A stretch of 64,000 bases of DNA from Gemmatimonadota bacterium (GTDB lineage Bacteria; Gemmatimonadota; Gemmatimonadetes; Gemmatimonadales; Gemmatimonadaceae): NCBI GenBank assembly GCA_003134685.1, contig PLCA01000003.1, forward strand, positions 559,123 through 623,122, read 5' to 3'. Made by a program: the position numbers and the translations under genes. The first letter of the stretch is position 1, and every line of letters starts with the position of its first letter. The notes beneath the pieces are model-generated. The model had not been told where the DNA came from. It saw only the letters and a program-made list of their open reading frames with translations, and searched no databases. This document shows positions 3,395-42,683 of this stretch, piece after piece.

Positions 3395-5803
3395 TTACGG
3401 CTTCCGCGCGTTCCCCATATAATCCGCGAGATTAGCGGAGCGGAGTATCGCAGTCCACCGCGGATCAGCACGCACGGGATCCCACGTTCTATCCAGCAGC
3501 GGCGAGTAAGCCGTGAAAACCGCAATCTCATGGTGACTGGTTGCTGTCTCCATTGCGTCGAGAGCGGCTGAGCGATTTCCCAGACCGAGCTGACAGATAG
3601 CCAGTGTGACCCACGATTCACGCTCCTTCTCTGCGCGCGCCTCGATTTCGGTCAGCAGTTTTTTCGCTTCGGCTGCACGGCCGGCAACGCCGTAGGCGTG
3701 ACACAGTTTGCCCTTGGTGAGAAGTGTCTCGCGATCGAGCCGAGTTGCCTGCTCGAACTCCTGCACCGCCTGCTGTACCTGACCGATCTGCAACTGAGCG
3801 TCGCCGATGAGCATAAGACTGAGCGTCAATCCCGGTGACAGTTCATCAGCCTGCCGGTATTGCTCGATCGCCTCATCGTAGCGTCCAGCCAGCGTCAGAG
3901 CGTAGCCAAGGGCTTCGAACGGAATGGGCGCCAGCGGGTCGAGCACTATGGCCTGGCGAGTCTCGACAAAACTCGAATCGAGCCTCCCGGTGTGATATAA
4001 CAGTTCCCCATACCACTGGTGCGCTGTCGGATACCCCGGATCGAGCGCGATCGCTTTCCGGTACTCGGTTTCACCAGCACGAAAATCCCAGGCGTGGACG
4101 GCTGCCAGTCCAAGCGCGGTGTGTGCCTCCGCGAGGGAGCTATCGAGGGCGAGCGCATGCGCCGCGGCGGAACGCGTCTTCGCCAGTCCATCGGCGGGAG
4201 GCGTGTCCGTGTACTCGGGTAGAATGGCGTGGGTGATCGCGAGTCCGGCATACGCGCGGGCGAAACCCGGATCTCTCCCGACGCTCTCCTCAAAATACGA
4301 AAGCGCCTTGCGCAGATTTGCCGCGCCCCGGCGATTCCAGAAGTAGCGTCCGCGCAGGTAGGCGTCGTACGCCTCGAGATTCTCCGTCCCCCGAGAGGAT
4401 GATGAGAGCTCAACGGCTTTCCCGCCGAGCCTGAGCTTGAGTGCGTCCGCGACGGAGCGGGCGATATCGTCCTGCACCGCGAAGATGTCGCTGGTGCGCC
4501 TCTCGTAAGTGTCCGACCAGATCGCGAGGCCGTCGCTCACGTTCGTGAGCTGGGCGTTGACTCGCAATCGATCCCCCGAGCGCCGGACGACTCCCTCCAG
4601 AATCGCCTGGACATGCAGCTTCCTGCCGATCTCCCCGACGTCGATGTCCTTCTTCCCCTTGAAGGCATACGCCGAAGTGCGAGAGGCAACACGTAGACCT
4701 GGAAGCTTGCTGAGCACGTTCGCGAGCTCGTCGGTCATGCCCTCGCTGAAATATTCGTCCTGAGCATCACCGCCGACGTTAGCCAGAGGTAACACTGCAA
4801 CCGAACGAATTTGGGCGACAGGTTGATCAGCCGCCGCCGAATTGCGCTTACTACCTCGGTAGACGAGGAGCGCCACGAGCAGCACGGCCGCGGCAGTGCC
4901 GGCGAAGATCAGCGTACGTCGGCCGCCAGCTTTTGGAGGCGGCGCCAGCGCGACCGGTACTGCCTCGAGCTCGTGAAGCAGATCTCCCGCGTTCTGCGGC
5001 CTGTCGGCGGGCCTCTTCTCGAGGCAGCGCATTATCAGCGCGCCAAGCGCGGGTGGAATGCCCGGTCGCCTCCGCTCGATCGGCTCCGGTTTCTCTATGG
5101 CGTGTGCGGCGAGCATCGCCTGGGTGGAGCGGCCGGCAAAAGGCAGAGTTCCCGTGAGCATCTCGTACGCCATCACGCCGACCGCGTAGAGGTCAGCGCG
5201 GTGATCGACCGACGGGTCCGCTGTCGCCTGCTCGGGCGCCATGTACGCCGGCGTGCCAAGCGATATTCCAATACCAGTGATTGTCGTCTGAGCTTCGGAG
5301 GATTTCGTAGATGCGCGCAATGCCTTCGCGACCCCGAAGTCAGTGACGAGCGCGAACTCGTCAGTGAGCATGACGTTGTCCGGCTTTATATCGCGGTGTA
5401 TGACGCCGTGCTTATGCGCGTAGCTGATGGCGCTTACGACCTCACGCAGAATCCTGACCGCTTCGGGGATCGGAAGCTCCCCGACCCGGGCAAGACGCGC
5501 TCGTAGAGACTCACCCTCGACGAACGGCATGGTGAAGTATGGAGTGCCGCCCACTTCGCCCGACGACAGCAGCGGAACGATGTGTGGATGCTGTAGCTTC
5601 GCGGCCAGCTGGATCTCCCTCCGGAATCGGTCCGCGCTCAGCTCGGCGGCCACCTCGGGAGGCAGAACCTTTATCACGACTTCCCGTCCCAGCTGGCGAT
5701 CCATCGCGATGAACACGCGACTCATCGCCCCACCCTGAAGTTCGCGCTCGAAGACGTAGATATCGCCGAGGGTGCGCTCAAGAGTCGCCCGCAGATCAGT
5801 CAT
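3395..5803 (-). CDS. Hanks-type Ser/Thr protein kinase with TM segment, TolB-N-like domain and TPR repeats
   Basis: VVIKVL, HRDIKPDN, TDFGVAK, YMAPEQ motifs; SVAVLPLAN..DEYFSEGMTDEL; TPR-like helical repeats. Confidence 0.93.
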   Translation of the reverse strand: MTDLRATLERTLGDIYVFERELQGGAMSRVFIAMDRQLGREVVIKVLPPEVAAELSADRFRREIQLAAKLQHPHIVPLLSSGEVGGTPYFTMPFVEGESLRARLARVGELPIPEAVRILREVVSAISYAHKHGVIHRDIKPDNVMLTDEFALVTDFGVAKALRASTKSSEAQTTITGIGISLGTPAYMAPEQATADPSVDHRADLYAVGVMAYEMLTGTLPFAGRSTQAMLAAHAIEKPEPIERRRPGIPPALGALIMRCLEKRPADRPQNAGDLLHELEAVPVALAPPPKAGGRRTLIFAGTAAAVLLVALLVYRGSKRNSAAADQPVAQIRSVAVLPLANVGGDAQDEYFSEGMTDELANVLSKLPGLRVASRTSAYAFKGKKDIDVGEIGRKLHVQAILEGVVRRSGDRLRVNAQLTNVSDGLAIWSDTYERRTSDIFAVQDDIARSVADALKLRLGGKAVELSSSSRGTENLEAYDAYLRGRYFWNRRGAANLRKALSYFEESVGRDPGFARAYAGLAITHAILPEYTDTPPADGLAKTRSAAAHALALDSSLAEAHTALGLAAVHAWDFRAGETEYRKAIALDPGYPTAHQWYGELLYHTGRLDSSFVETRQAIVLDPLAPIPFEALGYALTLAGRYDEAIEQYRQADELSPGLTLSLMLIGDAQLQIGQVQQAVQEFEQATRLDRETLLTKGKLCHAYGVAGRAAEAKKLLTEIEARAEKERESWVTLAICQLGLGNRSAALDAMETATSHHEIAVFTAYSPLLDRTWDPVRADPRWTAILRSANLADYMGNARKP

Positions 5804-7538: not shown

Positions 7539-8282
7539 CTAGGAACCAGAGCAAGCGACCTCGGCCGGATCCGAAATCATATTCCTGTAGTTATCCGGCG
7601 AAACATGGGTGCCCGCAACCTCGAAGTACTTGTCCCAGAAATCCCGAATAGCCGCGCCCCTCTCAGTGGTGACATCCGCTCCCGCCACCACGACGCAGAC
7701 CCCTTCGAGCCGCGGAATCCGCTTCTCGGCCGCGAGCTCCCGGATCCAGCGATTTCCTGGAATGTCCGCCTTATGCGTCATCATCACGTCGGGAGTTTCG
7801 TTCATCATGTCCGACAAGAGGAGCAGCGTCGTTCCGCGATTTCTCGAAGCCTTTGCATAATCCGCGGCGCGGCTGAGCGTGCCGAAAATGTCGGTCGACA
7901 GAATTCCCCTGGCGCGCGCCGAGTCGAACAGAATGGACGTCTGCATCCGCGCGATTTCCTTGAAATCCTCGAGCCGCCGCTTCTCCGACGCCGTCGGCGC
8001 TCCGGATTTCCGAGGAGTGCGGGTGCTGTCTGACCATTGTCGCGCCGGCACGCGTCCGCCCTGGTACACCTCGATGAGCGTCAGGTGATCGCCCACCTGA
8101 AGGTGATCGATCACGCCGTCCAGGAGCTTCTTCGATTCGTCGAGCTCGGTCCTGTTCCGGCTTCCGGAAATATCGATTCCCACGATGTAGGAATGTCCCT
8201 GGTAGGGAGGTTCGCTCCCTACGGCGTTGTCGCATCCTATAGCGACGACGGCGAGCGTTGAGGCGACAAGTATTGACCTCAT
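7539..8282 (-). CDS. vWA-domain lipoprotein with MIDAS motif
   Basis: Lipobox VVAIGC; DISGS (DxSxS), STDI and LLLSDM complete a MIDAS pattern. Confidence 0.75.
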   Translation of the reverse strand: MRSILVASTLAVVAIGCDNAVGSEPPYQGHSYIVGIDISGSRNRTELDESKKLLDGVIDHLQVGDHLTLIEVYQGGRVPARQWSDSTRTPRKSGAPTASEKRRLEDFKEIARMQTSILFDSARARGILSTDIFGTLSRAADYAKASRNRGTTLLLLSDMMNETPDVMMTHKADIPGNRWIRELAAEKRIPRLEGVCVVVAGADVTTERGAAIRDFWDKYFEVAGTHVSPDNYRNMISDPAEVACSGS

Positions 8283-15506: not shown

Positions 15507-17612
15507 GTGAAACCCAACATCAAGCTTGGCCATATCGCAATCGTTTTGTGCGCTGCAATCGCACCGATAGTGCTTGCCGCACAGCAGAGTTCGGCGGATC
15601 CGTTCATCTGGCTCGAGGACGTCGACAGCAAGAGATCGATGGATTGGGTCAACGCCCACAACGCGTCGACTGTGGCCGAGCTGAGCGCTTTGCCGATCTA
15701 TCAGTCGATCTACGATCGCACGAAGGCGATCCTCGACTCGAAGGACAGGATCGCGTATCCGCGCATTGTCGGCGACATGCTTTACAACTTCTGGCAGGAC
15801 GCCGATCACGAGCGAGGGATCTGGCGGCGCACGAGCTGGAGCGATTACACTGGCGGCAATCCGAAGTGGGTGACTGTGCTCGACGTAGACGCCCTCGCCA
15901 AAGCGGAGGGCGTGACCTGGTCGTGGGGCGGCGCCGATTGCTTCGATCCCGAGGAGCGGTTCTGCATGGTGTCGCTCTCGCGCGGCGGGTCGGATGCGAG
16001 CGAATCCCGCGAGTTCGATCTTAAGACGGGTCAGTTCGTAAAAGATGGCTTCCGGTTGCCGGAGGCAAAGAAGTCACTGGCTTGGGTTGATGCTAACAAT
16101 CTCCTTGTTGGCACGGACTACGGGCCGGGGTCGATGACCACTTCCGGCTACGCGCGCGTGGTCAAGCTCTGGAAACGCGGGACACCTCTGTCCTCTGCTA
16201 CGACGGTGTACGAAGCGCCCGCCGACCATATGGGAGCGTTTGTCGGATCAAGCGAAGCGGGCGACCGCCGCTACATCGAGGTCGACGATCAGAAGACTTT
16301 CTACGAGGGTACGAAGTCCCTGTTCCGGGATGGCCGCCTGGTGAAGCTGGATATTCCGGCGGATGCGGATCTGTTCCTGGTGCGGGATCAGATGGTCGTG
16401 TACGTGCGCGACCCGTGGCAGGTTGGCGGGAAAACATGGGGCACGGGGTCGCTCGTTGCGACGCCGCTCGATGACTTTCTCGCCGGGAAGAGCGACCTGA
16501 AGCTGGTGATGCAGCCCGGGCCTCGCGAGAGCGTCAACGGAATCGGGGCGACGCACGACCACCTGCTGATCAACGTGCTCAACAACGTACGCGGCGAGCT
16601 GCGGCGGTATCGCTACCAGAACGGCGCCTGGTCGGCGGAGAAGGTACCGGCGCCCGACCTCGGCGCCATTGGCGTGGTCGCGACCTCGCCGCGGTCGAAT
16701 CGTTTCTTCTTCACTTACACGAACTTCATCCAACCGACGACGCTCTACCTCGCGAGCGAGGACGGAAAAGTTTCCGAGGTGAAGCGACTGCCGGCGCAAT
16801 TCGACGCGAAGGACCTGACCGTTGAGCAGATGGAAGCGATGTCGAAAGACGGAACGAAGATCCCCTATTTTATCGTTCATCGTGAAGGCATGAAGCACGA
16901 TGGGAATAATCCCACGCTGCTGTACGCATATGGCGGGTTCGAGTCGTCGCAGACGCCGTCGTACAGCGCGAACGTGGGCGCGAACTGGCTCGAGCGCGGC
17001 GGGACTTATGTGCTCGCGAACATTCGCGGTGGCGGAGAGTTCGGTCCGGCGTGGCATCGCGCGGGTCTCAAGGAGAATCGCCAGCGCATCTATGACGACT
17101 TTGCAGCCGTGAGCGAGGCGCTGATAAGCCAGCGGATAACATCACCGGAGCATCTGGGGATCGAGGGCGGGAGCAACGGCGGGTTGCTGGTGGGCGTTGC
17201 GTTTACGGAGAGGCCGGAGCTGTACAAGGCGGTGGTGATCCAGTCGCCGCTGCTCGACATGCAGCGGTATAGTCATCTGCTGGCGGGGGCGAGCTGGATG
17301 GCGGAGTACGGGGATCCGGACAAGCCGGATGAGTGGGCTTACATCTCGAAATATTCGCCGTATCAGAATCTTCGGGCCGGTACGAAGTATCCCAAGGTGA
17401 TGTTCACGACCACTACGCGCGACGATCGGGTGCATCCTGCGCATGCGCGGAAGATGGCCGCGAAAATGGAGTCGATGGGGCTACCGTTTTACTACTTCGA
17501 GAATACCGAGGGCGGGCATGGGGCGGGGGTAACGAACGAGCAGAGGGCGAAGAGCATCGCGCTTACTTACGCCTATCTGTGGCAACAGCTGGGTGCCGTT
17601 CGGGGAATGTGA
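15507..17612 (+). CDS. Secreted prolyl oligopeptidase (S9A)
   Basis: Signal peptide, DPFIWLED, GGSNGG (Ser), DDRVHP (Asp), EGGHG (His). Confidence 0.95.
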   Translation: MKPNIKLGHIAIVLCAAIAPIVLAAQQSSADPFIWLEDVDSKRSMDWVNAHNASTVAELSALPIYQSIYDRTKAILDSKDRIAYPRIVGDMLYNFWQDADHERGIWRRTSWSDYTGGNPKWVTVLDVDALAKAEGVTWSWGGADCFDPEERFCMVSLSRGGSDASESREFDLKTGQFVKDGFRLPEAKKSLAWVDANNLLVGTDYGPGSMTTSGYARVVKLWKRGTPLSSATTVYEAPADHMGAFVGSSEAGDRRYIEVDDQKTFYEGTKSLFRDGRLVKLDIPADADLFLVRDQMVVYVRDPWQVGGKTWGTGSLVATPLDDFLAGKSDLKLVMQPGPRESVNGIGATHDHLLINVLNNVRGELRRYRYQNGAWSAEKVPAPDLGAIGVVATSPRSNRFFFTYTNFIQPTTLYLASEDGKVSEVKRLPAQFDAKDLTVEQMEAMSKDGTKIPYFIVHREGMKHDGNNPTLLYAYGGFESSQTPSYSANVGANWLERGGTYVLANIRGGGEFGPAWHRAGLKENRQRIYDDFAAVSEALISQRITSPEHLGIEGGSNGGLLVGVAFTERPELYKAVVIQSPLLDMQRYSHLLAGASWMAEYGDPDKPDEWAYISKYSPYQNLRAGTKYPKVMFTTTTRDDRVHPAHARKMAAKMESMGLPFYYFENTEGGHGAGVTNEQRAKSIALTYAYLWQQLGAVRGM

Positions 17613-30135: not shown

Positions 30136-30208
30136 TTGCCCCTCCTAGGCTCGAACTAGGACTCTTCTGATCCAGAATCAGACGTGTTGCCAGTTACACC
30201 AAGGGGCA
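30136..30208 (-). tRNA. tRNA-Gln(CUG), CCA not encoded
   Basis: Cloverleaf: acceptor TGCCCCT/AGGGGCA, D stem GTGT/ACAC, anticodon stem TCTGA/TCAGA with loop TTCTGGA, T arm CCTAG-TTCGAGC-CTAGG. Confidence 0.97.
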
Positions 30209-37072: not shown

Positions 37073-37147
37073 CGAGTGGATCGTTTACTACGCTATTGCA
37101 CGAGCCAGCTCTCTCAGTAACAGCCCCGCTTCACGGATCTAACCACG

Positions 37148-37728
37148 AACTTATGACTACCGGCCGGGGGCTTTGGGCGGGCCGGCCAGGGGCTACGTGC
37201 GGGCTGTTTCTGCGCGCCGAGTTATGCCGGAGGGGGCAGGATTCTGATGTCGGTGTTCCGCGACGACTTGCTCAATCTGCATGTGTGTCCGATTTCAGGA
37301 AGCTTCACGTCTGGCAGAAGGCGCTTGCGCTCTCACTCAGTGTCGATCGAGTCTGTAAAAAGATTCGCGGCGCACAATACGCTTCGCTGCGGAGTCAGTT
37401 ATTTCGCGCAGCGACGTCCATCCCGGCGAACATCGCCGAGGGAAGACGGCAGGAGAGCGAGAAGGAATTCGCGCGGTTTCTGCGCTATGCGCTGAATTCC
37501 AGTTCGGAGCTGGAGTCCCACCTGATTCTGGCTCGAGGGTGCGAGGCGATTTCAGAGGCTGATTTTCGCTCGCTGGTCTCCCAGACGATCCGAGTGCGAA
37601 AAATGTTGTACGCCCTTCTGAAGTCTCTCTCCGTTAACGATCCCCCTGCGCCAGTTCGCGCGCACAAAACAGCCCGCCCGAAGCCCCCGGCCGGCCCGCC
37701 CACAGCCCCCGGCCGGTAGTCGTAAGTT
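37148..37728. mobile_element. Inverted-repeat-bounded four-helix-bundle cassette, copy 1
   Basis: Arms of about 70 bp starting AACTTA(T/C)GACTACCGGCCGGGGGCT, with 5 mismatches over the first 62 bp, enclose one gene; mobility is inferred. Confidence 0.6.
37285..37719 (+). CDS. Four helix bundle protein (TIGR02436 / 23S rRNA IVP-like)
   Basis: SDFRKLHVWQKA, QLFRAATSIPANIAEG, FLRYALNSSSELESHL; Pro-rich tail encoded by the right inverted repeat. Confidence 0.92.
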   Translation: MSDFRKLHVWQKALALSLSVDRVCKKIRGAQYASLRSQLFRAATSIPANIAEGRRQESEKEFARFLRYALNSSSELESHLILARGCEAISEADFRSLVSQTIRVRKMLYALLKSLSVNDPPAPVRAHKTARPKPPAGPPTAPGR

Positions 37729-37733
37729 GTAGT

Positions 37734-40376
37734 TCAACGGCTGCCCTGCGTTGCCGTCGCCTGCCCTCGAGCGAGCGCCCTCATGCGCGGATCTTTCATA
37801 CGCCACGCGAACTCGGGATCCTTCAGGTACGCAACTGGATAACCGTTCGCGCTGGTGAAACAGCGCCGGGCAAAAGGCACCATCGTTTCAGCGTCGCCCA
37901 GAAACCCGTACACGGCTGCCCTCGTGCACGACAACTGCACCGCCTCGACGCCTTTGGGATACATCGTGATAGTAGGACTCTCTCCGGCGTGTCGGAGCAA
38001 GTCCAGCGCGCCCTGACGATCGCCGAGCAATGCGGCGAGCCACGCCAGAACCTCATACTGTGTGCGCCTCACGAAGGCAGACTGATTCGGATCGTCCGCC
38101 ATCTGCTTCTCGAGGCGCCAGGCGGAATCCGCAAGCGTGCGGGCGCGGGCGTAGTCTCCGCGGCCCGCGAATAGCTCGGCCTTCTCGGCGTAGAAATTCA
38201 CGCTATCGAGCGCGGAGCCTGGTGCGAACGACGCCAGAGAGCCGGTGGCGAGCTCATTCTGAAGCGCTGCGTCACCGTTTCGCATGAACTCCCCATCCAC
38301 GGCACCCAGTCTGCCTCCGCGAGCTCTCAGCTCTCGCACTGCTCGCGCGACACCAGCCCTGTCGCCGAGCTTTTCGGCGAGGGTTGCGGCGTCGAAGATC
38401 GGGCCAAGAGCGGCGGGGTCGAGCGCGCGCTCACGCGCCACGAGATCCGCCGCGTCGCGGTACCGCCGGAGTGCCAGCGCGGTATTGAAGCCGGTCGCGA
38501 GAACCGGTTTAGAGCCTGGCGCCAGCAGAACGAGGCGCTTGGCAGCTTCCCACGCGCCGGCGGAATCACCGACGAATTGGAGTGCGCGCTGCTCGTAAGC
38601 CAGGAGCTCGATGCTCGAGGGGTTCTCTCGCACCGCCCGCCTGAGGATGGAGAGAGCCTCTGAGGGGCGGTCCAACCCACGAAACGCCACCGTTGCAACG
38701 GCATTGGCCTGGGTCGGATCCATTTCCAGAGCGCGCTGCGCGAGAAAGGAGGCCGAGTCGAGCATCTTGGTGCCTCGGGCATAAGACATCGTCGCCATGG
38801 TTTGCGCGGCAAGCCCGAGAGCATCCGCGTAACCCGCATCTCGCTGATACGCGTGCTCGAACTGACGCAACGCCTTCTCGTATTCCGCATATGACGCAGT
38901 CGTATTTTCCTCATTGATGCGCTTGCCACGGACGACGGCGGCGAAAGCACCGGTATCGCCCGTCGCGCGCATTTCCATCGTCGTTCGCTCGCGATCGATC
39001 ATCGCCACATCCAACGCCTCGGCAACCCGCGTCGCGACCCTTGCCTGGATGGTGAAAGGCTCAGCGGGCGACACGATCTCCGGCTCACCCGCCCAGCTCG
39101 TGGTGCCGTCGGACACGCGTATGAGTGAGGGGCTCACCCGCACCAGCGGCTGACCGTCAGCTCCCTTCGCCCAGCGCACCGATGCCCGCAACACGAAATC
39201 TGCGCCGAGGGATTTCCCCGCCTCTAGCGGACTCGTTCCCGGAGACGCGGCGAGCGACGAAACGCTTTTCCGGTCGATGACACTTAGTCCCCCCAGGCGC
39301 GCGAGCTTTCCCGTAACAGCGTCGCGCAGTCCGTCGGCGAAGCTCGAATCGGCGCCCGGCCCTTCTGTCTCGAACGGAAGCACTGCTATCAAGGGTGGTC
39401 TGGCCGACGCGGCTCGCGCGCGCCAGACCACTCCACCAACCAGCACCAGGGCAACGACGAGCGTTGCGATGAGAACGCCCCGGCGGCGCGAGGGCACATT
39501 GAGTTGAGGGAACCGCGTGGTCGATGGATCATTGAGTGCCGCGAGAAGCTCCGTTCCCGTGACGGGCCGCATCGCAGCGGTCTTCGACAGGCAGCGCATC
39601 ACCAGATCCGCGATATAACGTGGAACCCTCGAGTTGGTGCCCGTTATCGGAGGTGGTGTATCCGACATCTGCGCTGTCAGCAGGGCTTGCGGCGATGTCA
39701 TTTCGGCGAAGGGGTGTTTTCCCGAGATCAGCTCGTAGGCGACGACACCCCACGCATAGATGTCCGCTCGCTGGTCTGTTGCCGGGTCGGAGGCCGCCTG
39801 CTCGGGGGCCATGTACATGGGTGTTCCCACGTAGTCGCCCGGCTGCGTAATCTCAGCCCCTCCCTTCGCCCCTTCCTTCCGCGCCGCCTGAACTGCCTTC
39901 GCGATTCCAAAATCCGTGACGACCGCCGTGCCCTCGCTGAGCAGAACGTTCTCGGGCTTGATGTCACGATGCACGATGCCCTGTCGGTGCGCGTAGGCGA
40001 GAGCGCTGGCGACATCGCGCAGTACGCTCAGGCTCTCCTCGAGCGGAACCGGGCCCTTCAGGATGCGCATGCGCAGCGACTCCCCGCGCACGAACGGCAT
40101 CGTAAAGTATGGGAGCCCGCCCACCGTCTGACCGGCACTGAGTACCGGTACGATGTGCGGCTCCTGGAGCGCGGCCGCGAGCTTGATCTCCCGGGCGAAT
40201 CGTGCCGCCGAGAATTCGTAGGTGAGCTCCGGTGGCAGCACCTTCACGACGATTTCCCGGCCGAGCGATTCGTCGCGAGCCACGAACACGCGGGCCATTC
40301 CACCCGCGCGCAGCTCCCTCTTTATCGTATAGTTGCTCCCGAACGTCTGTTGGAGCTGATCGAAGAGGTCGTCCAA
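37734..40376 (-). CDS. Hanks-type Ser/Thr kinase with TM segment, TolB-N-like and TPR domains
   Basis: IVVKVL, HRDIKPEN, TDFGIAK, YMAPEQ, IAVLPFE. Confidence 0.93.
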   Translation of the reverse strand: MDDLFDQLQQTFGSNYTIKRELRAGGMARVFVARDESLGREIVVKVLPPELTYEFSAARFAREIKLAAALQEPHIVPVLSAGQTVGGLPYFTMPFVRGESLRMRILKGPVPLEESLSVLRDVASALAYAHRQGIVHRDIKPENVLLSEGTAVVTDFGIAKAVQAARKEGAKGGAEITQPGDYVGTPMYMAPEQAASDPATDQRADIYAWGVVAYELISGKHPFAEMTSPQALLTAQMSDTPPPITGTNSRVPRYIADLVMRCLSKTAAMRPVTGTELLAALNDPSTTRFPQLNVPSRRRGVLIATLVVALVLVGGVVWRARAASARPPLIAVLPFETEGPGADSSFADGLRDAVTGKLARLGGLSVIDRKSVSSLAASPGTSPLEAGKSLGADFVLRASVRWAKGADGQPLVRVSPSLIRVSDGTTSWAGEPEIVSPAEPFTIQARVATRVAEALDVAMIDRERTTMEMRATGDTGAFAAVVRGKRINEENTTASYAEYEKALRQFEHAYQRDAGYADALGLAAQTMATMSYARGTKMLDSASFLAQRALEMDPTQANAVATVAFRGLDRPSEALSILRRAVRENPSSIELLAYEQRALQFVGDSAGAWEAAKRLVLLAPGSKPVLATGFNTALALRRYRDAADLVARERALDPAALGPIFDAATLAEKLGDRAGVARAVRELRARGGRLGAVDGEFMRNGDAALQNELATGSLASFAPGSALDSVNFYAEKAELFAGRGDYARARTLADSAWRLEKQMADDPNQSAFVRRTQYEVLAWLAALLGDRQGALDLLRHAGESPTITMYPKGVEAVQLSCTRAAVYGFLGDAETMVPFARRCFTSANGYPVAYLKDPEFAWRMKDPRMRALARGQATATQGSR

Positions 40377-40620
40377 GGGTTCCTAAGCGCGGGCATCTAA
40401 TGTACGCCGCGAGAGCCCGGTCCAGCTACGCTAGCCGCCTGTAACCCAGTCACTAGCTGACTCCGTGCGGTTCGTGGTGCATGCTTCCGCCGGATACATC
40501 GCGCGGGGTCGGCACGGGGTATCCCCTTCGCGGCTACGCTCGCTTGGTCGGAGCCCCTAACTGCGCTCCCTCGCTCTGCTCGGTCGCGGGTCTCCTCCTC
40601 GCGCTCGCTTTGGAAAGCCG

Positions 40621-40886
40621 CTACGAGGACACCCCGCGCCTCCTGGGCGAGCACTCTTAACAGCACACGCCTCGAACTGCGAAGTCAACGCGGCCTCCGT
40701 GCGCGCAATCCGCGGCAGCGCGTGCTCGGCATTCTCCGCGCACGCACTTCGCGCGGGAGCGAAACTCGATGCAGGCTTTCGGGCGTGCGTGCGCGACCTG
40801 GTCGTAGTCACCGCGCCACCGACGCGGCGCAAGCGCCGCGCGCAGTTACGAACCCAGGGGGAAGGAGGGTGAGGGTGTCCTCGTAG
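40621..40886. repeat. Intergenic 14-bp inverted repeat enclosing about 240 bp
   Basis: CTACGAGGACACCC (40621-40634) and GGGTGTCCTCGTAG (40873-40886). Confidence 0.5.
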
Positions 40887-41043
40887 GCGACGACCCACGA
40901 GCGACAATCGGTGCGCCGACGCCGTCTAAGAGCGACTAATGCCTGGTTTCACGAAGATCGTATGGACAACCAACGAGCGAGAGCCCGGAGCCGAAGAGGA
41001 TACCCTCGCCCGACTGACCGGCGCAGACGTCGAGACTGCGCGA

Positions 41044-41799
41044 TTAGCCGCGCGCCTCGGCCGTCTGAAGAGCGTCGTCGAAGAGCCGCATCAACTTTTC
41101 GAATCCTCGTTCCGCGTTTTGCCGGTCATAGACGCGGCCGCCACGAATCATCCAGCCGTGCTTGGCATCGTACATCTCGCTCTCGTACTCGCCGCCCCTC
41201 GAGCGTAGCGCCCACTCGAATTTCTCGATCGCCTCGGCATTCATACTCTGGTCGTTGGTGGCGTGGCCGAAGTAAAGCCGCGCTTTCACGCGTGGCAGGA
41301 CGAGATGGGGGCTGTCGATGGTGTCGGTAAACAATCCGGCGCCGTGGAATGAAGCGGCAGCGGCGACGCGATCGGGACGCGCCGCCGCGACGAGCAGCGC
41401 GAACCTGCCGGAGAAGCAGAAGCCGATGACACCCATTGGTCCGCTGCCGACGAACGGCTGCGATGCCAGGAAATCGACGTACGCCGAGCCGTCGCGCTCC
41501 ATGGCGACCGGCTTGAGCGGACCCGTGAGCTCGCGGAATCGCTCGCGCGTGCGGTCATTACCGAAATCGGGCTCGAACGGAAAGACCGGCGACCTTGAAA
41601 TCCGGTAAAAGATATTGGGCGTGAGCACGACGTAGCCGCGCTCAGCGATGCGCTTCGACTGCTCGGCGAACGCGGGACGGAAGCCGAGTCCATCGGTGAG
41701 GTTGATAATGGCGGGAAGCGGGTCGGTGGATTCCGGACGTACGAGGAGTGCTTCGGTGACTCCGTCGGCGGCGGGAATCTCGAGGTTTTCCTGGATCAT
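41044..41799 (-). CDS. Dienelactone hydrolase family protein
   Basis: GFCFSG nucleophile (Cys), AAASFHG, HGW catalytic His. Confidence 0.9.
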   Translation of the reverse strand: MIQENLEIPAADGVTEALLVRPESTDPLPAIINLTDGLGFRPAFAEQSKRIAERGYVVLTPNIFYRISRSPVFPFEPDFGNDRTRERFRELTGPLKPVAMERDGSAYVDFLASQPFVGSGPMGVIGFCFSGRFALLVAAARPDRVAAAASFHGAGLFTDTIDSPHLVLPRVKARLYFGHATNDQSMNAEAIEKFEWALRSRGGEYESEMYDAKHGWMIRGGRVYDRQNAERGFEKLMRLFDDALQTAEARG

Positions 41800-41845
41800 G
41801 GGTTGGGGCGAGTTGGGTTGCTGCTAAAGTATGGCTAACGGATTT

Positions 41846-42473
41846 AACTGCAACGTATGACTACCGGCCGGGGGCTTTCGGCGGGACGGCTCTCGGCTGC
41901 GGGCTGGCTGCTTCTGCGCGCTGATTATGGATAGGGGGCGGGAGAAAGTGATGGCGGCTCTCCGCGATGCTTTTCTCATTTTCCTGTGTGTCCGATTTCA
42001 AGAAGCTGCACGTCTGGCAGAAGGCACACGCGCTCTCGCTCTGTGTCGATCGAGTCTGTAAGCAGATTCGCGGCAGTCGCTACGCTTCGCTGCGAAGTCA
42101 GCTCTTTCGCGCGGCGACGTCGATTCCCGCGAACATCGCCGAGGGAAGAAGGCATTGGATCCTCGAGCACGACGAGGAGCTGCGGAGAGCGAGAAGGAAT
42201 TCGCGCGGTTTCTGCGGTACGCGCTCAACTCGAGCTCAGAGTTGGAGTATCACCTGATTCTGGGTCACGACACCAAGGCGATTTCAGAGGACGACTTCCG
42301 CTCGCTAGTCACCCAGACAATACGAGTGCGAAAGATGTTGTATGCACTACTGAAGTGTCTCTCCAGTACCGATCGCACACCCCCTCCGCCAGCTTGCGCA
42401 CACAAAACAGCCCGCCCGGAGCCCAAGGCCGATCCGCCATCAGCCCCCGGCCGGTAGTCGTAAGTTCGCAGTT
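41846..42473. mobile_element. Inverted-repeat-bounded four-helix-bundle cassette, copy 2
   Basis: Perfect 18-bp core GACTACCGGCCGGGGGCT on both arms, with degenerate pairing beyond it; same architecture as copy 1. Confidence 0.6.
41988..42457 (+). pseudogene. Four helix bundle gene disrupted by a 29-nt insertion
   Basis: Relative to copy 1, 42155-42183 is extra and shifts the frame after NIAEGRR. Confidence 0.8.
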
Positions 42474-42683
42474 TCCCGGCCGGTAGGAACACCGATAAAC
42501 ATCTGGTGTATTGTATACCGAATCGGAGACAAGGACGTCTCCTTCGCACGCTCTACAACAATTTCCGACTCAGGCTCTCCGTCGCATTGCAACGGGATCT
42601 GGTCCAGCTACTGAAATCGTTGGTACCACGCTTGGTAGCAAGGATTTCCCGGATCAAAATCACTCTTGCTGGAGAACCGTTGC

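Follow-up and report, generated by a model that had tools for sequence, protein, structure and literature searches.

Hairpin cassettes around a PF05635 four-helix-bundle gene in Gemmatimonadota and their likeness to 23S rRNA intervening sequences

A 64-kb stretch of a Gemmatimonadota genome (contig PLCA01000003.1, hereafter the window) contains two cassettes, copy 1 at 37140-37737 and copy 2 at 41845-42473. Each consists of one gene for a four-helix-bundle (4HB) protein of the Pfam family PF05635, placed between long inverted arms. We think it probable, though well short of certain, that both loci are selfish, at least formerly mobile hairpin cassettes, and that they are the same kind of element as the intervening sequences (IVSs) of 23S rRNA genes. 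On this reading copy 1 represents a live cassette, whose site a relative shares, and copy 2 one that died recently. What we observe directly is the anatomy of the cassettes, the structure of their repeat family, a series of decay states, polymorphism at orthologous sites, the pattern of selection on the gene, and an architecture shared with a real IVS and with 13 sites outside rRNA.

IVSs with an open reading frame (ORF) in 23S rRNA have been known for more than 30 years, yet neither where they come from nor what their protein does has been explained. Outside diversity-generating retroelements (DGRs), PF05635 genes are still annotated as 'four helix bundle protein' of unknown function. The loci described here make the 23S rRNA IVS appear to be one among the habitats of a selfish hairpin cassette that is widespread. 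This turns an rRNA curiosity into a general, testable class of element, with sites in spacers and operons, a trail of gene-less derivatives, and filled and empty sites.

Anatomy of the two cassettes and their gene

All four arms share an exact 18-mer, GACTACCGGCCGGGGGCT, with four sites in the window: 37155 and 41859 on the plus strand, 37704 and 42442 on the minus strand. A first reading made from the window's letters (the sequence-only reading) had described two cassettes, each with one 4HB gene between arms sharing an 18-mer; the fourfold exact match and the PF05635 matches agree with it. At up to three mismatches there is one extra weak match, at 16116 (0.07 expected by chance). We rejected it as an arm: an arm profile built from relatives (nhmmer) does not recover it and finds only four arms in the whole 64 kb, those of copies 1 and 2.

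All feature coordinates that follow are given on the plus strand. The 5' arm of copy 1 (37140..37236) has the outer terminus TAACCACGAACTTAT, the invariant core GACTACCGGCCGGGGGCT at 37155-37172 and a bulged inner extension; nhmmer places it at 37138-37211. On the coding strand the 3' arm (37642..37737) is rich in C. Its outer terminus, GTTGTAGTT, overlaps a convergent Ser/Thr kinase gene at the stop codon (37734-37736). In copy 2 the 5' arm (41845..41935) has the terminus TAACTGCAACGTAT and its core at 41859-41876. The 3' arm (42380..42473) has its core on the minus strand at 42442-42459 and the terminus GTTCGCAGTT. It is followed by the remnant of a tandem duplicate of the terminal ~29 nt (TCCCGGCCGGTAGG, 42474..42487), which is complete in a relative, L167. 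Many members of the family carry such a duplicate beside one end.

The arms pair over long distances. In copy 1, 37148-37209 pairs with 37667-37728 (62 nt, 92% complementary), and in copy 2, 41852-41913 pairs with 42405-42466 (62 nt, 79% complementary). When the two copies are aligned, homology and pairing run outward to a terminal TAAC(T/C)(G/A)C..AAC motif at 37140 (TAACCACGAAC) and 41845 (TAACTGCAAC), with the complement at the opposite cassette end. Homology and pairing also run inward, in copy 1 to ~37236 and ~37642. The pairing of about 70 bp first described for copy 1 extends further, to ~100 nt with bulges. Each arm is made of 2.0 tandem copies of a 22-nt unit (in copy 1 at 37160-37204, by tandem-repeat analysis, and at 37672-37716). 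In RNA folding the arms close one long stem round a ~400-nt loop (z-scores against shuffles: -13.6 for copy 1, -5.9 for copy 2).

The gene of copy 1 is intact (37285..37719, GTG start, 144 aa). That of copy 2 is a pseudogene (41988..42457), whose halves match positions 1-52 and 52-105 of the Pfam profile in different frames (50 and 46 bits). A frameshifting insertion of 29 bp (TTGGATCCTCGAGCACGACGAGGAGCTGC, 42155..42183) is unique in the window and missing from the orthologous intact cassettes of three relatives (L116, L167, L170). The sequence-only reading had overlooked the pseudogene, the doubled 22-nt structure of the arms, and the mostly gene-less repeat family around them.

The copy 1 protein matches PF05635 over profile positions 1-105 of 106 (E = 5e-30, 104 bits, cut-off 33.8), and the enclosed genes of both copies match this family only. 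The motif R-x3-S-x3-N-x2-E (RAATSIPANIAE in copy 1) is found in 120/120 close homologs and is the core of the consensus GxxRxxxSxxxNxxE (PMC3936711). Its S, N and E are invariant even with distant plasmid proteins added. At E <= 1e-5 there are 1167 homologs of the copy 1 protein. The 120 best show 67-100% identity and a length of ~146 aa; most come from contigs of 1-3 kb, which fits a repeat that breaks assemblies. The cassette family offers an explanation for the GC-rich repeats that fragment Gemmatimonadota assemblies.

In the AlphaFold model, residues 4-117 form four helices with a confidence (predicted local distance difference test, pLDDT) above 95, and the tail, ~118-145, is disordered (pLDDT ~50). 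The best Foldseek matches are 2GSC (template modelling score, TM, 0.88-0.90; root-mean-square deviation 1.1 A) and 2RLD (TM 0.85-0.91), both deposited with five chains. Next come structures of Avd, the DGR accessory protein, in DGR reverse-transcriptase complexes and alone (TM ~0.8-0.85, sequence identity 8-9%). A phmmer comparison with 2gsc gives E = 8e-10. The relation to Avd and to the 23S IVS protein drawn earlier is thus seen in the fold. A search of a phage collection, meant as a negative control for DGR Avd, returned one weak match. A classification of PF05635 as HEPN was considered and dropped, since a HEPN survey (PMC3710099) is without mention of the family.

The right arm encodes the last ~30 codons (the Pro-rich tail) and the TAG stop of each gene, as had been read from the sequence: the stops, at 37717-37719 and 42455-42457, lie inside the right arms, and that of copy 1 belongs to the conserved right-arm CCGGTAGTC. 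The arm-encoded tail, ...APGR, ends ~112 of the 120 best homologs. We compared six cassettes from different loci and genomes pairwise. In the helical core, the ratio of nonsynonymous to synonymous divergence (dN/dS) is 0.05-0.15 in every pair but one (0.26). In the arm-encoded tail it is 0.15-1.6, mostly 0.5-1.6, and dS is lower than in the core. The low core ratios show strong purifying selection on the helical core, so the protein core is functional. The tail is read-through of arm sequence that is constrained at the nucleotide, not the protein, level, and as protein it evolves neutrally. As a rule for annotation, a Pro-rich tail on such a gene would be taken as arm read-through.

A repeat family with gene-less members and polymorphic sites

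A degenerate arm pattern, searched in contigs of one genome per species, matches 82 stretches, 75 of which lie in 24 metagenome-assembled genomes (MAGs; 23 labelled Gemmatimonadota and one 'Holophagaceae' bin). The remaining matches are chance hits in other phyla, turned down by the arm profile. Up to 17 arms in eight loci were recovered from one MAG. The spread beyond two copies suspected at the outset is thus confirmed by a multi-copy family with presence/absence polymorphism at orthologous sites. Arms are numerous, but the PF05635 gene is present in only five of the pattern-matched loci and most members are gene-less.

The gene-less members take several forms. Cassettes of 180-270 bp keep the 5' untranslated region and the 3' end of the gene and have lost its interior. 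Others are minimal hairpins of 115-150 bp, and ~40 are true solo arms. Composites carry a second-subfamily hairpin (ACTACCAGC...) in the loop of another element, at several different sites; such nested insertions are found in L026, L029, L031 and L049. Because deleted cassettes keep these two parts, the gene-bearing form is the ancestral one. Every full-length member found encodes PF05635 only. We considered a 1.2-kb arm pair (L056) as a transposase-bearing parent; it encloses an unrelated 145-aa ORF and no transposase. Matches to a 15-nt 23S motif in five loci are due to chance. One long-read contig, L094, holds three arm members of a divergent subfamily (ACTACCTGGTGAGAGCTGTCAGCCGAGCC...) within 8 kb (2249-2312, 5010-5163, 7558-7699).

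Copy 2 sits upstream of a dienelactone-hydrolase (DLH) gene, and we compared this site among 63 metagenomic loci that encode the hydrolase. The site varies among relatives. The cassette is intact in L116, L167 and L170, has the 29-bp insertion in the window, and has a 97-bp deletion in L021. Seven loci keep the hairpin only, L121 and L137 keep remnants, and the site is empty in L122, L169, L150, L111 and others. L136 has a different PF05635 cassette at this spot, with a protein 39% identical and with GCGGGAT/GCGGGAG heptamer arrays. It thus seems that the two cassettes share a hot spot for insertion, which lies immediately upstream of a conserved motif, AGCAGGATATTTGCGA. The comparison of filled and empty sites proposed at the outset thus yields both states.

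Several details accompany this site. In L136 (metagenome contig Ga0066651_10013258, 1-540), heptamer arrays of 6.7 and 7.4 copies flank the PF05635 gene, and L139 keeps a remnant of an L136-type array. On the far side of the copy 2 site (window 41800-42666), the window shares a histidine kinase gene with L116 and L167; other relatives have a retropepsin-like gene there (compared: L111, L115, L122, L150, L165). The far-side gene varies among relatives, and therefore the copy 2 cassette sits at a synteny break. A second site lies directly after the DLH stop. It holds paired hairpins in L112-L115, L117, L120, L123 and L127, and a single arm with a short terminal fragment in L124, L132 and L135. 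Several arms there keep a piece of the 3' end of the 4HB gene; in the window this site is empty.

The copy 1 site is variable as well. After orthologs of the kinase that adjoins copy 1, L094 has a gene-less hairpin of a divergent arm subfamily, whose arms match each other at nearly every position though they are far from the consensus. L095 has nothing there. L096 has an unrelated palindromic tandem array, a palindrome of TTAATCAGCAATCAGCA tandem repeats and their complement (4330-4599), within which the contig ends. Elsewhere in the family, many orthologous insertions differ only in decay; at one site, for example, a version of 179 bp has a counterpart of 117 bp. Some solo arms are kept next to one and the same gene in three to four MAGs. 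Presence/absence polymorphism at orthologous sites is clear.

Distant cassettes and a true 23S rRNA intervening sequence

A tblastn search of plasmids with the helical core returned 17 records (29-42% identity) from cyanobacteria, Gemmatirosa and Azospirillum, and we examined 14. Inverted arrays of tandem short repeats flank the PF05635 gene in all 14 cases. These genes have inverted-repeat scores of 14.5-31.5; the median of 21 neighbouring genes is ~8. Three of the neighbours are outliers, of which one clearly overlaps the array of a 4HB gene and the other two appear to. In L106 (801-1571) and L109 (780-1550), the gene just upstream of the Nostoc 4HB cassette scored 26, with inverted heptamer arrays; this may reflect a further upstream array, possibly the relic of another insertion.

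The repeat period is 7 in 12 of the 14 cases and 8 in the other two, and the copy number ranges from 2.4 to 15.6. The upstream array of 12/14 is rich in purines on the coding strand and stops 3-50 nt short of the start codon; the downstream array overlaps the stop or comes after it.

One of these cassettes is a classical IVS. On plasmid AZO_p2 of Azospirillum lipoferum (L100), the PF05635 gene lies inside a 23S rRNA gene (Rfam, 2540 bits). It has the same gene-between-inverted-repeats layout as the window copies, with GGACAGA/GGACGGA repeats. The other 13 lie outside rRNA. Their sites include the spacer between nrdB and nrdA (on the opposite strand), that between an HlyD-like gene and its ABC transporter, cas6/cas4 (twice), cmr2/cmr3, parA/parB and conjugation-type operons. 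Three homologous operons on Nostoc plasmids have the cassette in different spacers and so give reciprocal filled and empty sites. The filled sites hold ~420-500 bp exactly between a stop codon and the next start. The sequence-only reading had proposed an IVS-like unit outside rRNA, and this layout supports it: Rfam finds no rRNA in the window, where its sole match is a tRNA gene (30136-30208, minus strand), and none was found in the related Gemmatimonadaceae loci tested.

The likeness extends to described IVSs. In Coxiella, GACAGAT heptamers lie 5' of the IVS ORF and the IVS is excised by RNase III (PMC4990558). ORF-bearing 23S IVSs (Leptospira, Coxiella 'S23p', L100) likewise place PF05635 between complementary, stem-forming arms; those of Coxiella (GACAGAT) and L100 (GGACAGA/GGACGGA) are likewise tandem short repeats. 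The ORF of these IVSs tends to decay, and they have been under suspicion of mobility since 1993. What sets apart the window copies and 13 of the 14 plasmid cases is their place in intergenic spacers and protein operons. The arms of the window family are also longer (70-100 nt, 22-nt units), and its gene-less derivatives outnumber the gene-bearing members.

The literature records PF05635 genes in cas operons, beside DGR reverse transcriptases and, in bacteria of the candidate phyla radiation, at scattered sites of insertion in rRNA. In Geobacter metallireducens, 24 + 21 + 8 pairs of inverted tandem hepta- or octanucleotide arrays lie in spacers (PMC2700814, table S4), among them those of nifD/nifK, proB/proA and trp. 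They were read as regulator sites, and many carry the IS110-family element ISGme8 at a fixed distance (PMC2700814). These paired arrays and the heptamers of cyanobacterial short tandemly repeated repetitive (STRR) sequences resemble the arrays round PF05635 genes and the gene-less relics; the text and supplements that we searched state no link to PF05635. In the literature searched, whose coverage is incomplete so that this is absence of evidence only, we found no description of PF05635 outside rRNA as a repeat-bracketed cassette with gene-less derivatives.

Proposed mechanism and competing explanations

The unit has one Avd-like 4HB gene between inverted arrays of short tandem repeats, in the window lineage 2 x 22-nt units and an outer AACTGCA-type terminus, in other lineages 4-8 copies of a unit of 7-8 nt. 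We propose that on transcription, by itself or by read-through on either strand, the arms form a long stem, which RNase III would cut, as is established for rRNA IVSs, and that the insertion would thereby be excised from host transcripts. Such excision would explain how hosts tolerate the element inside operons and rRNA. Cutting would also free or gate the ORF-bearing loop RNA.

The protein would bind the repeat arrays, by analogy with Avd. Avd (PDB 4DWL, 8UB7) is likewise a four-helix bundle, and its pentamer binds structured RNA and the reverse transcriptase. The window cassettes differ in having no reverse transcriptase and no template/variable repeats nearby. The sequence-only reading had suggested that the protein might act as an RNA chaperone. 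The protein could be the element's own propagation or maintenance factor, which recruits a host enzyme; that the IVS ORF serves mobility is a proposal credited to Ralph and McClelland 1993 (PMC4990558). Cultured carrier organisms have been identified for direct tests of RNase III processing, of binding between protein and repeat, and of mobility: Nostoc punctiforme PCC 73102 (pNPUN01), Gemmatirosa kalamazoonensis KBS708 (plasmid 1) and, with an rRNA IVS, Azospirillum lipoferum 4B.

A wider version of this mechanism is more doubtful, and we offer it tentatively. PF05635 hairpin cassettes might be a widespread autonomous selfish class, overlooked until now, whose sole protein, a non-catalytic Avd-like pentamer, binds the element's own arms and borrows a host enzyme to spread. 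Candidates for this enzyme are a reverse transcriptase, RNase III and a hairpin nuclease. If so, 23S IVSs, many cyanobacterial STRR arrays and the paired 'regulator sites' of Geobacter would be habitats or relics of one element.

For 29 element 'mini-hairpins' we compared the observed arms with 500 shuffles. Paired cells make up 83.6%, against 78.8% in the shuffles, and no shuffle reaches the observed value. Changes on both sides occur at 27/62 pairs, which 19/500 shuffles reach, and the covariation score is 0.174 against 0.102. Gene-bearing copies pair best (0.81-0.91). The covariation is modest, and relatedness or subfamily descent alone could yield such values; the clearest double changes separate arm subfamilies. 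Between the two window copies no compensatory change is seen. In the main, the arm changes first noted at matching positions fall in shared hypervariable columns and do not compensate each other.

A 17-bp helix (GACTACCGGCCGGGGGC) is almost invariant. Several observations weigh against a mobile cassette with an RNA stem. Beyond this helix come columns that are mismatched in most elements. Arm identity within elements is only slightly higher than between elements (0.80 against 0.74). Among arm mismatches G-U is not preferred on the coding strand (25 against 23), and over half, 52, are transversions. In the distant cassettes G-U preference is absent too (44 against 37). Selection for sense-RNA pairing in particular is therefore not visible. 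With the weak excess within elements and the persistent mismatches, pairing is kept only loosely, and the pattern does not distinguish RNA from single-stranded DNA. RNA matches amount to three short contigs of related arms from one soil metatranscriptome; the Stordalen metatranscriptomes gave no arm matches.

Other observations concern movement. Copy 1 is syntenic with a cassette in a relative (L005, protein 84% identical), and in species-level MAGs many insertions sit at orthologous places, so that movement is rare or ancient. The helical bundle, of 115 residues, shows no obvious catalytic site. In 35 paired elements the flanks carry no consistent direct repeat, and at some elements the inverted repeat continues into the flanks. 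A TA duplication is compatible with two of the Nostoc cases and would fit a DNA transposase that acts in trans.

This leads to the main competing explanation, which we consider rather unlikely: the arms are a generic repeat of the kind of a MITE (miniature inverted-repeat transposable element) or a repetitive extragenic palindromic (REP) sequence, moved in trans by an unlinked transposase, and the 4HB gene is a passenger in a minority of copies. Candidate enzymes are of the IS630 type, which duplicates TA, or of the IS200/IS605 or IS110 types, which recognise hairpins. The family has terminal inverted repeats, many copies and insertion polymorphism, as MITEs do, and most arms lack the gene. 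Termini of the form T-TA-ACTGC...GCAGT-TA-A are frequent, and a TA or CTAG target would suit the two Nostoc filled/empty pairs. Elements of the IS110 family frequently target the paired hepta- and octanucleotide arrays of Geobacter metallireducens.

Against a passenger gene stands the fact that the cargo is always PF05635, despite unrelated array sequences across phyla. The deleted copies keep remnants of the gene, which makes the gene-bearing form the parent, and the core of the gene is under strong purifying selection at many loci. Furthermore, no transposase with matching ends occurs among ~170 related loci, and there is none near the cassettes in the window; the lack of a transposase and of a clear target duplication was already part of the sequence-only reading. 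An integron attC site was rejected as a match for the AAC...GTT termini, as the gene lies inside the palindrome and not beside it.

Known small repeats show both the likeness and the difference. Correia/NEMIS elements of Neisseria and ERIC (enterobacterial repetitive intergenic consensus) elements belong to the MITEs that fold in transcripts, and RNase III is known to act on the hairpins they form in read-through RNA. They are likewise short, multi-copy, intergenic inverted repeats that can be derived from a larger parent by internal deletion. The parent of the window family differs: it encodes a 4HB protein instead of a transposase, shows no clear target duplication and has tandem-array arms. 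REP sequences and REPINs, with their RAYT (REP-associated tyrosine transposase) genes, combine a small gene between inverted repeats with hairpin doublets and decayed singlets, are largely vertically inherited and persist for long. The likeness lies in the repeat-flanked gene and in genome-wide hairpins with decayed singlets. Unlike the RAYT gene, the gene of the window family does not encode a Y1/HUH transposase; its arms are three to four times longer than REPs, and there are several gene copies per genome.

Less likely still, nothing was ever mobile: the arms could be REP-like terminators, mRNA stabilisers or insulators that serve the host, and the 4HB gene a host gene gated by pairing of its 5' and 3' ends. 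Elements do lie in intergenic spacers, often directly after the stops of convergent genes (the kinase stop in copy 1), and the solo arms kept beside one gene in several MAGs would agree with a host role. The cyanobacterial 5' array has GGAG-like motifs by the start codon, which the 3' array could mask. A structure that serves the host is, however, hard to reconcile with independent pseudogenisation at one locus, with graded decay, remnants and empty orthologous sites, with nested insertions, with different cassettes at one site, with insertion into different spacers of homologous operons, and with a copy number that reaches 17 recovered arms in a single MAG.

It is very improbable that the genes are orphan Avd accessory genes of a DGR and the arms DGR-related target or template structures: the fold is similar to Avd and PF05635 is the Pfam family most often adjoining DGR reverse transcriptases, but the identity to Avd is only 8-9%, neither copy nor any related cassette has a reverse transcriptase or a template/variable repeat pair beside it, the neighbours are a kinase, a hydrolase, a histidine kinase, an aldo-keto reductase and DUF4926, and a repeat search of the window shows only the arms.

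Some features of the window lie outside these arguments. Identical loci occur in the Gemmatimonadetes peat MAGs GCA_003134915.1 and GCA_003170215.1. Scans for sigma-70 promoters and intrinsic terminators gave nothing above chance. The spacer of ~660 bp from the kinase start to the DLH stop (40377-41043) contains no convincing gene. It holds a 24-nt inverted repeat (40621-40644/40863-40886, 83% complementary) that is unrelated to the cassette arms.

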